Shown here: piece by piece, positions 32,821 to 39,800 of the stretch
Position numbering within the stretch: position 1 is the first letter of the stretch
How the letters are laid out: each line of letters starts with the position of its first letter
Assembly (NCBI GenBank): GCA_021613535.1
Contig: CP075495.1
Coordinates: forward strand, 11,842,001-11,906,000
DNA from: Adineta vaga
Lineage: Eukaryota > Animalia > Rotifera
DNA: 64,000 nucleotides
Direction of reading: 5' to 3'
The notes under the pieces: model-generated
Seen by the model: the letters and a program-made list of their open reading frames with translations, nothing else
Told to the model about the DNA's origin: nothing
The model's database searches: none
Program-made: the position numbers and the translations under genes

Positions 32821-33230
32821 AACAAACTACATTCAAAATCTGCATATATTTCTACGTATACATACTAAATGAATCTCATTTTTTCGATGACATATAAGCA
32901 ATAGATAAAACTAATCAACAAAATGTTGTTTTTAGTCTTGTTGTAAAATGAACATTTTGCTTTTTTGTCGTTTATCGTTCTTTTTCTTCTTTGCCTCTGG
33001 TTAATTGATCTTGTATGGAATTCATGTCATCATATGTTTTATTTTTTCAACAGTAATCGTTGTTCATCCGCTTGTATTCTTGTTTTCTTTTGTTCATATT
33101 GGAGAAGAATAAGAAGAAGACAGATAAGAATTTATGAGATGATATATATATATAAATATATATTTCTATTTTGTATTTACAATAACAACAAAAGATCAAT
33201 TGTAGAGATAGACGAAAACAAACTATATAT

Positions 33231-33623
33231 ATGTGGTCATCTTTAGTTGCACGACGATTTATTGGAAAAAATTCTTTCTGTAGATTAAGAATGGCATCTA
33301 CTGCATCGATTACACCAAAACTTCATATTTTACACTATGATTATGTATCAAATGTGGTGGAGAAACGTAAACCATATCGTGAAGCTCATTTGAATTTTAT
33401 TGGTAAACAAGTTGAGAATGGAAATGTTATTTTAGGTGGTGCTACTGGTAATCCACCATCGGAAGCTTTACTTATCTTTCGTAATTTATCATTAAAAGAA
33501 ATCGAACAACTTGCTCAACAAGATCCATATGTTATCAATGGTATTGTTACAAAATATTCCGTAAAACCATATATGGCTGTTGTTGGTGATGATTTATTAA
33601 AGAATGATCTTATCAAAGTTTAA
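33231..33623 (+). CDS. YciI/YCII-domain protein with a putative mitochondrial presequence, intronless
   Basis: LHYDYV...EKRKPYREAHL...ILGGA...ALLIF...DPYVINGIV matches the YCII signature (R-x3-R-x2-H, GGA, DPY). Confidence 0.85.
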   Translation: MWSSLVARRFIGKNSFCRLRMASTASITPKLHILHYDYVSNVVEKRKPYREAHLNFIGKQVENGNVILGGATGNPPSEALLIFRNLSLKEIEQLAQQDPYVINGIVTKYSVKPYMAVVGDDLLKNDLIKV

Positions 33624-33794: not shown

Positions 33795-35643
33795 TTATGA
33801 TTTAATTAGAGAAATGGAAGAAGAAGAAGAAAGCATAGACAAGTTAGTCACTCCAAGTTTAATTGTAATTGGCATAAGACATTGTTCAGTTCGAATAACA
33901 GTATGAAATAATGTGCATATGCAATAAAAATGTAAATAAACAGCAACTATTACTGCTACATGTAATATATGATGACTTTGTCCAACAATATCAAAACGAC
34001 CTTTAATTATTAGAAAATAAAATATTTACTAAATCATTTTTTCTTTTGAAAAAAAATTACCTGGAAAAAATCGTTCGGGTACACGAACTGCATAAGCTAC
34101 ACCACCACCAATATATGTAACAGCCATAATAATAAGATAGAGAAAACCCATTTGAAACATACGTGCAAAACCATGAAGAATGCATGCATGAACGGCGGGT
34201 GCAACACCTAAATATCAAATCATTTTGAAAGAATAGAAATTCAAAAGTATTTTCATCTACCATAAAGACCCAGAGCAATAAATAGAATGGCTTTAAATGG
34301 ACGACAATGTGGTTTTGAACATGTAGCACTACTTGTGCCAATCATGGATGCAAGTGATAGAATAAGTAAAATACTAATATAGATTGTTTTAAGTTTAAAA
34401 TAACAATAGAAATAATAATGAATAACTGGAATCATTGAACCAAAGATTAAAATATTAATACCTAGAGAAAAATATTGAGACTACATAGATATATAAATCA
34501 AACCATTAGTGATAAGTATATGGCAAGGTCGATACAAAAAGTAATTCCTATTCTCGCAGAACAAGATTTAATAATAACAAAGTTAATAAAAAGCATCTGT
34601 CTAGTTGACTGAATTCGTAAATTGATGGAGACACTAAATCAAATTGACGCGGATAGAAATTGTCATTTTTACCCTACAGTCTTTTCTTATCTACTACATT
34701 ATTTATATTATGCATTCGTATTGATAGTATATTTTACTTAAATAAAACTGTTCTTTCTTACCCATATAATCAAGTTTGGAAACAGTAACCATGACACGTG
34801 GTGAATAATTAATAAATACATGTAATAAAGTCGAAAATGTTAAACATAATATAGCAGAAATGAAAAACATACTAAATGATATATAATCACTTAAATCCAT
34901 TTGTCGATGATTATCAATTAGAAATAGAACATAGGTAACTGCAACACATAATGCACCAATTAAATGTGTCCAAATATTAACTGTTTCACTATGTATTGAT
35001 GCAATTGATATGAGACATTCTCGAACGGAATTCGCTGGTGGTCGATGTTTTTGTAATAAAAAATGATTATCACCAAGCCATTCTATATGAATTTGAGAAA
35101 AGAAAGAAAAAAAAATAAGATAATTAATATTAGTTTTATTATTGACAAAAGATATTTTGTAAACAGATCACACTGATCTATAGAAACTCTTTTCCTATCA
35201 GACGTAAATAAACAAAAGAAAGATCATGACATTTTCTCAATATGTTCTGTCGCAGTTTTTTTTTAATCTATATATATATATGACCTTTAAGATGAAATTT
35301 CAAATTCATTCGTGAAATACAAACCTGGTAAACCCCAATGTGCTATATATCGTCGACGTAGAACATTATCAGCAGAAATATTATTATCTGGAAGATTTCC
35401 TAATGGTCCCCGTTCGTATTGATCAATTGGTTCGATATTATAATGAACGGAACGATTTTCTTGCATAGGTCTTTTTAAGAATGAAAAATCTTGATTTGGC
35501 GATGTCATTGTTGTTGTATAACGATTATTATAATTTTCATCATTAGTATCATCATCGTCATCATCTTTATAATGTTTTTTTTCTTGATGTCCTCGTTCAA
35601 TTTCAGTTTTTACTGCTTGAATTTTTTCAATTGGTATTGGCAT
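33795..35643 (-). CDS. Adiponectin receptor-like PAQR protein (5 exons)
   Basis: LPEWLGDNHFLLQKHRPP, IHSETVNIWTH, FSTLLH, KLDYMG, RVPERFFPGRFDIVGQSHHILH. Zn-ligand His positions are retained. Confidence 0.92.
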
Positions 35644-36823
35644 TGTTTGATTTCGAAAGATCTATCTGACAAGAAGTAAATCAATCGTGAATAACGAATA
35701 TATATATATATCAATGAGAATCAGAAAAAGACTTCTTGTTTGTGTCACCAAAAGAAGAACAAAAAAAAATAGAACTTGTGTGTACTGTGCTCAGCTGAGA
35801 TAAACATATACATTGGCAAAAGATGCAAACCAATGAAAATGTGTAGACGACATGACGATAGAGTTCGATATCCTAGACAACAACAAGGCATGCCTAACGA
35901 CAAAAATGATTTGTCATAAATAATATTTATCCATTCATTCTTTAAAAGTTGTAAATCGATTATTTGTATGAAAAAAAAAACGAATCATTGTGTTAAATGA
36001 AAAATTATTTGTTCAATTGATTTGCATAACAAACCATATTGAGTTCTTCAAAAACTAATTCATTTTAAGTATTAATGTTGAATAAGAATGTAATATGATC
36101 AGTAAAATAGATATTTGATACATATTGTTCGATAAATGAAATTCATCCGAATGTTTTTCTTTTTCTTTTTAATAATTTACATTTGTTTTTCCTTCTAACG
36201 TTGTTTTTTTTTGTAGATATAAAATAAATTAGCAAATAATTTATTTATTATTCATGATTACTTCCAACGATTCGATCATATTGTCGAAGAAGCGAATGAT
36301 CAAATAAAAAGATGTTCTCTAGTCGTACATATTATTGTATATTGATAATACATGTAACGCTTGTTTCCATTAGATATTTCCAAAGGCTGAAGTTGACATT
36401 CATAAAATCTAGATAAGAGAAGCATATTTGTTTGTTATTTTCATAATTTATTAATGAATACATATACATACAGAAAAAAAATGACAAATACTTAGTGTTA
36501 TTTTGCGACTGCTATGCATATGTCTTTCGTAGATCTCATTCTCTGTTTCTGAATCTTGTTGACGTCTAGCAGAAAATATGTCGTTCTTTGCGTCTCTATA
36601 TTTGACGTCATTTGCTGTACAATGCAACTTTGTTGTTATTGAAGTAATCTAACCCATTGCCTATCTATTTTTTCTAGATATTTTATGTAGTTTATTATGA
36701 TTATTGGTTTCATCTCTCTCTTGTCCCATTCTTGTATTTTAACCATCTGTGCCTGTTTATGAATTTCGATAGTTGGTTCGTCGATTATTCATTATTATTA
36801 TTATTATTTCCGAAGAATCATTG

Positions 36824-39800
36824 ATGCCTCTCAACAAGTATGTTATATTCTTTTCTTTTTGTTTGTCTTTCTCTGTTTTCTTAGCTAATATAGTACTCGA
36901 GACATATGTTTAATGCTGAAATGAGTAAAAATAAGTTTGTCTATTTTCATGCTTTGGATTAGGAACAGCAAAGACATGTATCACCATTGGAAGATCCAAA
37001 ATCTTGTTCACACAATTCATCATAATAATGTTGTTGAGAAAAAATAGATTTCGTATTGAAGTTATTAGGAATTGATTTGGAAAGTGAATGATATTTGTTT
37101 TTCTGATTTCTTATACCAACAGCTTGACGAAGCATACTGAGTAAATCAAATGCCGATATTGTTTGTAAAATACTGATAAAAATAAAACAAAGAACAAAGA
37201 TATAGATAAACAATCGCATAATCGAATAACTTAGTGAAAAAACAAATAATTTCATATAGAATACGAAAAAGGAAAATAAGCGCCTGTTATATTTAGAACT
37301 GATTCATGGTTTGCACGTATTAGTCAAGCATTAGGACGTGATAAAACACCAACAGCTGATGGTAAAGAAGATATTCGTTATGCCGTACGAAAAATTAATC
37401 AACATTTTGGCACCGGTATGTCATACTATCAGTCAGAGATGAATAATGATCATTATATGTATCTCTATAATTTGTTTTTCAGAAAAACCAAATAATGAAT
37501 TGGTTACAAAATATGCAAATGTTATTGTTGATCTTCTACTTTCTATGCACAACTGTTCAGATGATTTCGAATTAATAAGTCAAATATTAGTGCTTATAAG
37601 AGAAATACTCGATTGCGATAAGAGTATGTATTGGAAAGAACTACAAACAATCAAAATATCGTATATTGACTCTAACAGAATTAAATGAAGAATGAAAGAA
37701 ACAACTCTGATAGAGATAAATGATCTTGATTTTATGAATTATATTTTAGATTTCATGAGAAAGCTTAGCTCAGAATAGCAAGTCTCTTTTAATAAAGAGT
37801 CTCGATTAAATTTGAACTTATATTATTGATAGAGGTGCGAATAGATTCTCAGTTGCTATAGTATCATATACTTCAGAGAAAATCAGAAATATATAGACAA
37901 ATATTAGTAATTTGAGACTATAGATCCAACTGTTACAAATTATTCAAAATCAAGGCTTTCATTAGTCCCTCTATTTTGTTCTAAGGTAATGACTATTTTA
38001 TACATAAGTAGTTATATACATATTAAATTAAGTTTGATCAAATTCAAAAGATAGTTTCGAAGAACAAATATGTTGTGCTTATTGTTAAAAGTTATATTAT
38101 AATTTTCTTTTGAAGAAACACGACGACCATTGGTTAAAGCATTAATAAAAAATGATGTATGCAGTTTTTTACTACACAATCTACGTGCAGTTGCTGATGA
38201 TCGTGGTCTGGGACAAGATATTTCACTTCAAATTCATCAAATCCTAGCAGTTGTTGGTCATCATGGTACGTGATCTTTTCTTTAAATATCGTTCTTTCTC
38301 ATTAACTTTTGTTTTGTTTTTTAACCTTTTTAGACAAACGTCTTCCATTAAAAGCTCGTCTGTTTAAAACCATAGGATGTACCATTAATTTATTACGTAT
38401 ATACAGTTATAATGCTAAGATCGGTCCAGTCATTTTAACTATATTAAAACTCTATGCTAAGAATGGTATGTGATTTCTTTATCTTAATTAAAAGAAATTC
38501 TTGAATGAAATATTCATTCTTTTTTTTTCTAGCAATAACTGCTTCTGTGATATGTCGTGCTCAAGGTTTACAACCACTACTTCGTCTAGCACTGACACTT
38601 GATCGACGCCATGCTAAATTACAAAAATCTGCTATTACTGTTGTGCGATATCTTACACAAACAAGTAAGAGAAGAATTGAAATGAAGATAACAAAGATTA
38701 AAAACAAACAATATATTGATCTTTTAGAAAAATTAGCTGCTCGAGCAACGACGACTACTATTGTTCGTGATATATTAGCTATTGTATTTTTAATGGATAA
38801 ATCAGCAGGACCAAGTCGTGTACGATCAATTAAAATTAAAGAAAATCTTCTGAAAGTGCTCTTAAATTTAGTTAAATCAAGTATGAGACATCTGCTTATT
38901 TTCGATAGACTTTTAGTTGTATAAATCATTTAAACCTATTTAGAAACTGGCCGTCTTCAATTTTTAGAAGCAAACGGCTTTTATCTATTGCATGAATCAG
39001 CATTGAATGTTCTACAAAATGATAATTTTTCAACATTTCTTGATCTTTCTTGTCATATAATGTTACATTGTTGTCCAAAACAACAATTACCAATAGACAA
39101 TGTATTTAGTCCAGTACGATATGTTTTACCACAAGGTTATGAATATGTTGTTGCTAATGAATTATTTCTTGCTGGTATGAAGGAATTTGATCATTATCAA
39201 TATTATTTTCTATTATTTTTCTAAATGATTAGATTTAGATCCTAATTTGTATAAAGATTTTAATGATATGCGTGAAAAATCTGCATCAGCTCTTCCACCA
39301 AACGAAGGAAACTATAGTAACGAACAACGTCTTCGTCCAAAATCATCAACAACTTCCAATATCATAACACGAGTACCCTCAATATCGAAGTCGTCCACGG
39401 TTGCTGCATCTCGACCAAAATCAACGAAAGGAACAAGATCAGAAAAGAAGTCAGGTGAATCTCAAGGATTAACGAAGAAAAAATCAAGTTTAAATGAAAA
39501 TAAAGATCGACAAAGATCGACAATAGATGATCGTGATCTTGATGAAACAGAAGAGGAACTGGATGATGAAGGTAAATATCTATTGAATGTTCTTAACTGA
39601 AACGATGAGTTATTATGAAAGATTAAATTGCGTTCTAATCGTCTCATTTCTTCTTTTCTTTTTTTTTGATAGATAGCGGAAAATCAGACGAAGAAGATGA
39701 AGATGAAGAAGATGATGAAGATGGTCCATCTAATCGAGAAAATTTTACTAATTCATCTGTACCATTACCAAACGGTGAACCATCAATGGTAATCATTTTC

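Follow-up and report, generated by a model that had tools for sequence, protein, structure and literature searches.

Host gene and the antisense open reading frame in its first intron

The stretch of Adineta vaga DNA analysed here (64,000 nucleotides, hereafter the window) contains a forward-strand tubulin deglutamylase gene, coding for a CCP1-like carboxypeptidase (CCP), whose first intron holds, on the opposite strand, an unannotated open reading frame (ORF) of 86 amino acids. The features of the locus, and the evidence used to place each of them, are as follows:

36676..36837, + strand: host exon 1 (5' leader and ATG at 36824, MPLNK), placed from the contig starts and the start of protein P0002
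36838..37296, + strand: host intron 1 (459 nt, GT..AG, phase 2), placed from spliced contigs
37297..37415, + strand: host exon 2, with low silent change, from the pS comparison with loci L001-L003
37219-36959, - strand: nested single-exon ORF, 86 aa (P0001), from the sequence, its homologues and conservation
37220..37296, - strand: 77-nt gap separating the nested ATG from host exon 2 (relatives: 56-77 nt), from the locus alignment
37151..37219, - strand: residues 1-23, hydrophobic signal-like peptide, with a cut predicted by inspection between T/I-S-A and F, from hydropathy
37106..37150, - strand: residues 24-38, amphipathic helix FDLL..R.AxGIxN, the most conserved mature part, from conservation and hydrophobic moment
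36959..36976, - strand: C-terminal CxCCS and stop codon, from the CCS ends of homologues
36909..36945, - strand: possible poly(A) signals, AATAGA (36945-36940, at the aligned position of AATAAA in the relatives) and ATTAAA (36914-36909)

On formal grounds the exon at 37297 could be fed by many pairs of ATG and donor, so the choice of exon 1 needed outside data, and eight of the 16 available sequencing runs (X1, X2, X3, X5, X6, X7, X11 and X14) were compared with the window. The first-pass annotation had proposed an upstream phase-2 exon with its ATG at 36824 (ATGCCTCTCAACAA followed by the donor gtatgt at 36824-36843, + strand; acceptor AG at 37295-37296), and this exon was confirmed by spliced contigs and by public protein starts. 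The junction 36837^37297 was present in contigs of runs X1, X2 and X3 from one study, all of which start at 36676, and, with strain differences, in a contig of run X11 from a second study of a diverged strain; these four runs are RNA by guess only, and their contigs skip several further GT..AG introns. A search with the exon-2 peptide returned three matches among four candidates, including P0002 (Adineta vaga, 98% over the query) and P0004 (A. ricciae), both of which start with MPLNK-T/IDSWF. The 459-nt intron is therefore real: its junction stands in spliced contigs of both studies, and MPLNK-TDSWF opens the public A. vaga protein. Since the CCP start lies upstream, in the MPLNK exon joined to 37297, the ORF is nested, and the head-to-head arrangement that a CCP start at or after 37297 would have implied does not apply.

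P0002 contains the translations of window exons 2-8 as exact substrings and carries the Pfam domains TPR_CCP1_N, Pepdidase_M14_N and Peptidase_M14, in a domain order like that of the CCP1/AGTPBP1-like cytosolic carboxypeptidases (PF25571, PF18027, PF00246), and the public annotation I4U23_009464 agrees. Judged by its translation, the host gene is a bdelloid CCP1/AGTPBP1-like carboxypeptidase.

Host intron 1 measures 351, 395 and 392 nt in the related loci L001, L002 and L003, where exon 1 encodes MPLIK or MPLNK and is followed by the donor gtatgt or gtacgt. The ORF had been described as largely filling this intron, and it was found at that place, wholly within the spliced intron and occupying 57-68% of it; when intron 1 was shuffled by mononucleotides 5000 times, an ATG-initiated ORF of at least 86 aa arose in 12 of the shuffles. 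The intron had also been called far longer than a local norm of about 55 nt; its length stands, although the short introns of the CCP gene measure 63-68 nt and intron 3 (492 nt) is long as well. Since intron 3 contains no comparable ORF, intron length alone says little. Intron 3 (37624-38115, + strand) measures 492, 230, 580 and 437 nt in the four sequences, long in each of them, and is hardly alignable and free of ORFs; a signal-like stretch within it was considered as a paralogue and rejected (no ATG, E 5.1).

Homologues of the nested ORF

The exact P0001 protein was absent from a collection of 15 billion proteins, though the A. vaga host protein was present there, and a word search with the single sequence gave no match. 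A full phmmer scan with P0001 yielded four matches, three of them true (best E 3.5e-11); the fourth, the repeat protein P0008, was set aside. The profile built from the true matches returned 13 matches among 194 candidates, which correspond to 12 distinct homologues because P0015 is P0007 with an extension; none of the 12 has an accession from a named species. The source names 'ribosomal protein S15P/S13E' attached to P0007 and P0009 were unsupported by Pfam.

At the DNA level, none of 340 pattern matches in metagenome contigs was confirmed in the single-sequence scan with P0001, and the family profile confirmed three of 113 (L001-L003). All three loci carry an intact ORF, in antisense orientation between exons 1 and 2 of CCP, so that the disruption in relatives considered beforehand was not observed; the loci were found through the peptide, hence intactness is ascertained and broken copies could not appear. 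The contrast between the ORF and its flanks within the same loci is free of this bias. A fourth, indirect case of nesting is provided by P0010, whose read-through tail matches the antisense translation of host exon 1 (10/17 identical). No pattern match was confirmed in prokaryote genomes (0/138) or viral contigs (0/104), so that a foreign donor is not indicated at the sensitivity of these scans, and no paralogue of the ORF was found within the window. An antisense coding extension over exon 2 was rejected, as it is not conserved and meets a stop or has no ATG in relatives. Synteny extends beyond CCP in L003, where the upstream divergent gene region also aligns (window 35063-39557).

Conservation and selection

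Local alignment of the ORF DNA to the window gave z scores of 39.6-40.3 in L001, L002 and L003. Intron 3 scored only -0.2 to 4.2, and the flanks of intron 1 scored -0.6 to 0.2 in L001 and L002 and 6.6-10.8 in L003. Silent divergence of the ORF from the window (pS 0.38-0.42) equals that of host exons 3-8 (0.33-0.55), and replacement divergence was 0.24-0.29 across the whole ORF, falling to 0.16-0.19 when the comparison is confined to codons 1-42 and the final six. A replacement deficit (pN < pS, one-sided Fisher p < 0.05) was detected in three of six whole-ORF pairs and three of the four conserved-part pairs tested, the pairs not being independent. The dN/dS ratio that had been suggested as a check was 0.47-0.69 from the window, a moderate constraint only, and the L001-L002 pair showed no replacement deficit (dN/dS 1.09). 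Variation by codon position was weakly skewed (11, 13 and 18), and dS of the signal region from the window was lowish (0.19-0.40).

Over the first 44 codons each of the other five frames holds 1-9 stops in every sequence and the ORF frame none; ORF lengths (261, 240, 261 and 234 nt) differ by whole codons; and in neutral simulations at 0.21-0.39 divergence the ATG and open frame were kept in 0.2-2.5% of 20000 runs. Among the variants listed for the DNA run X7, one fell within the ORF and was silent. By these comparisons the ORF is under protein-level, coding-type constraint.

Anatomy of the predicted peptide

The N-terminal signal peptide proposed at first reading is matched, by hydropathy and motif, in all 13 proteins, in which the signal-like stretch has a Kyte-Doolittle 11-residue mean of 3.1-3.6 and a small residue at -1; the hydrophobic stretch, which covers residues 1-23 (1-19 in three homologues), ends in T/I-S-A/G. 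M1, R2, C11 and S22 are invariant, and L4, I5, V9, L18, T21 and A23 nearly so. In the helix core, D25, A33, G35, I36 and N38 are invariant and the hydrophobic moment is 0.46-0.66. N38 stands in a sequon (N-x-S/T) in all 12 protein homologues, through a change from NQS to NHT, a pattern indicative of the secretory pathway; NQK stands there in the window copy. A linker of freely varying length follows the helix core.

The C-terminus ends in CCS in eight of the 12 homologues, seven of them with CRCCS, and in CLCCS in the window copy; among the loci, TAA/TGA and codon swaps occur at the CxCCS end. The C-x11-CxCC-S motif originally described is thus conserved in its CxCCS part, whereas C70, its first cysteine, and with it the C-x11 spacing, is private to the window copy. 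A basic-x-x-basic site precedes an 11-residue tail in six of the eight full-length homologues (four of them strict RxxR) and is absent in P0018, P0019, L003 and the window copy. The mature part has 2-4 cysteines, terminally placed, and a net charge of 0 to +6 (0 in the window copy and P0019); no amidation signal was found in the P0001 family. The structure model consists of one helix (residues 2-33) followed by a low-confidence chain (mean pLDDT 59, pTM 0.28), and a Foldseek search with this low-confidence model gave no matches. Four homologues (P0006, P0020, P0021 and P0022) end at 44-51 aa, just after the helix and without the Cys tail, three of them with a signal region four residues shorter; these forms may be a tail-less subfamily (e.g. 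a homeologous copy), fragments, intron-split or short variants.

Transcript signals and the low silent change of host exon 2

An AATAAA lies 13-14 nt past the stop in all three relatives, while the A. vaga copy has AATAGA there and, further on, the ATTAAA that had been noted previously (36914-36909). The acceptor-like site before the nested ATG was also present (TTTTTTCACTAAG at 37242-37230, - strand), but its AG, 10 nt before the ATG, is kept in the window and L002 and absent in L001 and L003 (2/4), and conservation lends no support to a trans- or cis-spliced 5' end at this AG. In the gap upstream of the ATG, GCGC at 37280-37283 is kept in all four sequences, the frequency of GCGC in the window being 0.27 per kb. 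The unstranded contigs of the guessed-RNA runs X1, X2, X3, X11 and X14 gave essentially no cover over the ORF and are uninformative on its expression. The nested unit is reached by two contigs of low depth, one of X6 (37190-37340, unspliced) and one of X5 (36850-36969, with a loose end absent from the window); as either may be DNA, both were left out of account.

Host exon 2, which lies 77 nt upstream of the nested ATG, showed a pS of 0.08, 0.12 and 0.13 against the three loci, compared with 0.40-0.47 for exon 3 and 0.33-0.55 for exons 4-8 in L003, a silent change about 3.5- to 5-fold below that of exons 3-8. Among codons for the same residue, silent differences in exon 2 versus later exons were 1/28 versus 10/32, 3/27 versus 10/33 and 3/30 versus 79/264 (Fisher p = 0.007, 0.115 and 0.019, respectively); the four-way test of exon 2 versus exon 3 gave p = 0.064, with all six pairs in the same direction. 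Exon 4 has no silent-site constraint, although it too is preceded by a long intron, so that the constraint on exon 2 is not a general effect of long introns.

The simplest reading of this pattern is regulatory DNA for the nested gene that overlaps exon 2. The promoter of the nested gene had been predicted within CCP exons or introns, and the low silent change in exon 2 lends that prediction independent support. Splicing enhancers or promoter-proximal elements of CCP itself may instead be the source of the constraint, since the CCP 5' leader is conserved too. The constraint on exon 2 is the most unusual point of the finding.

Conservation is strong in the CCP 5' leader (z 25-39; window 36685-36824, + strand, and L001-L003), which carries upstream ATGs in all four sequences: an ATG-stop at -133/-139, a uORF of 16-21 codons whose C-L-stop end lies at -55/-61, and, at -59/-65, an ATG out of frame with the main start, whose reading extends to that start or beyond it. 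Their conservation suggests translational control of CCP.

Comparison with known systems

Pfam gave no match for P0001 and only weak, scattered matches for its relatives (best E 0.015); the PDB sequence search gave no match (best E 1.5), Rfam gave none, and no match to the peptide family was found among known neuropeptide precursors. No published description of the nested peptide gene, and no paper linking AGTPBP1 with a nested antisense intronic gene, was found in the searched literature, which was without most subscription journals. The peptide family appears undescribed, and the arrangement itself is of a known kind.

In Drosophila, 9.5% of genes take part in nested structures, and opposite-strand, fast-evolving nested genes are common, according to PMC3814207. 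Like the Drosophila cases described there, the rotifer ORF is small, single-exon, on the opposite strand of a conserved host and faster-evolving than that host; unlike them, its intron barely exceeds the gene, and the adjacent host coding exon is constrained at the DNA level.

CLCCY is a lophotrochozoan proneuropeptide, and the four precursors displayed in PMC8557429 have KR followed by an 8-Cys domain with an internal CC. The rotifer family shares with it a signal peptide, a length of about 85 aa and a CLCC or CC string, the window copy ending in CLCCS; it differs in having three cysteines at the very end, a Cys-free helix core and the consensus CRCCS. Identity with CLCCY, as drawn in that source, was rejected, there being no KR with an 8-Cys domain and internal CC and the 2-4 rotifer cysteines being terminal. 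In the supplement of PMC8557429, CRCCS occurred four times, RAVGI once, and CLCCS and GITNQ not at all; the three passages displayed are receptors.

The nearest clusters in the Atlas were DUF4543/C17orf67 (0.81-0.84, with 145/256 features at 0.84) and Frey (0.75), all below the lead threshold of 0.9. DUF4543/C17orf67 (PF15076), a family of small chordate proteins, resembles P0001 in length and in its signal-plus-helix layout; membership was rejected, as none of 14 family members matched PF15076 at E up to 5 and the Atlas score is below 0.9.

Interpretation of the nested gene

The ORF is best explained as a real protein-coding nested gene, a reading to which we assign a probability of about 0.87. 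The first-pass annotation had claimed a real nested gene for an unrecognised secreted peptide, and this claim is upheld by the nesting, the homologues, the three loci and the coding-type constraint, secretion being predicted. The nature of the product is less settled, and a secreted signalling-type peptide precursor, without detected known relatives, is given somewhat less than an even chance.

Transcription of such a gene would begin within host exon 2 or immediately beyond it, with the DNA of the exon doubling as promoter, and would end at a poly(A) signal some 14 nt past the stop codon, a compact placement that would allow the whole unit to fit an intron of 350-460 nt. Residues 1-23 would route the chain into the ER and be cut between S-A and F, and the helix FDLL..R.AxGIxN, N-glycosylated at its end in relatives, would offer a binding surface for a receptor or partner. 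After the helix would come a disordered linker of free length, and the terminal CxCCS could form one disulphide and leave one free thiol for dimer formation. In lineages with the basic-x-x-basic site, a furin-like convertase would release the 11-residue tail; release cannot be a universal function, since the site is present in only six of eight full-length homologues and four of 12 homologues have no Cys tail. Transcription, signal cleavage, glycosylation, disulphides and receptor binding are thus steps that we infer. Against the signalling reading, the A. vaga copy has neither sequon, basic cut site nor canonical AATAAA. The missing amidation signal and neuropeptide match, the moderate dN/dS with its weak skew by codon position, the high conservation of the signal region and the p of 0.064 for exon 2 versus exon 3 weigh on the same side. 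CCP1-type enzymes are cytosolic, so the link between the nested gene and CCP is probably positional and a physical link unlikely.

A stronger form of the signalling reading, which we regard as doubtful, is that of a bdelloid-specific peptide hormone family, locked in a minimal CCP intron by the exon-2 promoter and coupled to CCP in its transcription, so that neurons or ciliated cells would express the two genes together or to the exclusion of each other. If true, genome annotation and neuropeptide surveys based on proteomes would have overlooked a hormone family. In published work, 20 neuropeptide families were identified in rotifer proteomes by known-family profiles (10.1101/2024.07.20.604414), FCAP and FMRFamide-type peptides were reported in Rotaria (PMC6425005), and gnathiferans were named as under-sampled (PMC8557429); genes of this type would be missed because such surveys look for known families in predicted proteomes or transcriptomes and because of that under-sampling.

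The product could also be a secreted effector whose helix binds membranes or surfaces and whose CxCCS cross-links or binds metal, as in a defence peptide, glue, cuticle or egg-coat protein, an unlikely reading but the one that survives best among the rivals. It would account for a mature region that is amphipathic and mildly cationic (net charge 0 to +6), with three clustered terminal cysteines, and for the moderate dN/dS and free linker length; the C-x-C-C-x end of the family recalls the C-terminus of vertebrate metallothionein. It fits poorly with the zero net charge of the window copy and P0019 and with the missing Pfam or PDB match; defence peptides are often multi-copy, and the window holds no paralogue.

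Another unlikely reading is a type II ER/Golgi membrane microprotein, in which residues 3-23 would be an uncleaved signal anchor and the glycosylated C-terminal part luminal. The signal region here is more conserved than disposable signals usually are, with its four invariant and six nearly invariant residues, and such conservation fits an uncleaved anchor, as do the continuous helix 2-33 of the low-confidence model and the fact that the nearest Atlas clusters, albeit below 0.9, are small chordate secretory-pathway proteins (DUF4543/C17orf67 and Frey). The small-residue motif T/I-S-A/G that closes the hydrophobic stretch in 13/13 proteins argues against it, and in the three homologues that lose four residues of it the stretch is short for a membrane span.

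It is improbable that the family is real and the A. vaga copy decaying or silent. The losses of sequon, basic cut site and canonical AATAAA, and the absence of the A. vaga peptide from the collection that contains its host protein, would suit decay. The start, helix, frame and CxCCS-stop are nevertheless intact at a neutral level of silent divergence, an outcome that is rare under neutral change; in the comparisons with L002 and L003 pN falls below pS, and the constraint on exon 2 includes the window. A non-coding CCP element (enhancer, splicing element or RNA) with an incidental ORF is very improbable, for although the CCP leader is also strongly conserved, signal-region dS is lowish and the loci were ascertained through the peptide, the stops in the five other frames, the codon-sized length changes, the stop and codon swaps at the CxCCS end and the missing Rfam match all speak against it.

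As a protein-coding nested gene, the ORF adds a conserved small-protein family with no detected relative outside bdelloid-like sequence, whose A. vaga member is absent from the searched collection. The silent-site constraint on exon 2 offers a directly testable case of a promoter inside a coding exon of another gene. A cheap screen is suggested for further cases: long introns in genomes of short introns, whose antisense strand is alignable between species.

Neighbouring features

A contig of run X1 at 36292-36579 is spliced on the - strand (36408^36472, CT..AC), and about 100 nt separate its end from the start of the CCP transcript, which suggests a compact bidirectional promoter at 36580-36676 common to CCP and a HlyIII/PAQR-family gene (~35660 and below). 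Within this interval, TGACGTCA at ~36605, which we take to be CRE-like, has its TGACGTC kept in L001 and L003. Elsewhere in the window, an ORF with a YCII-related domain (E 6.5e-08) was found at 33186-33623 on the + strand.
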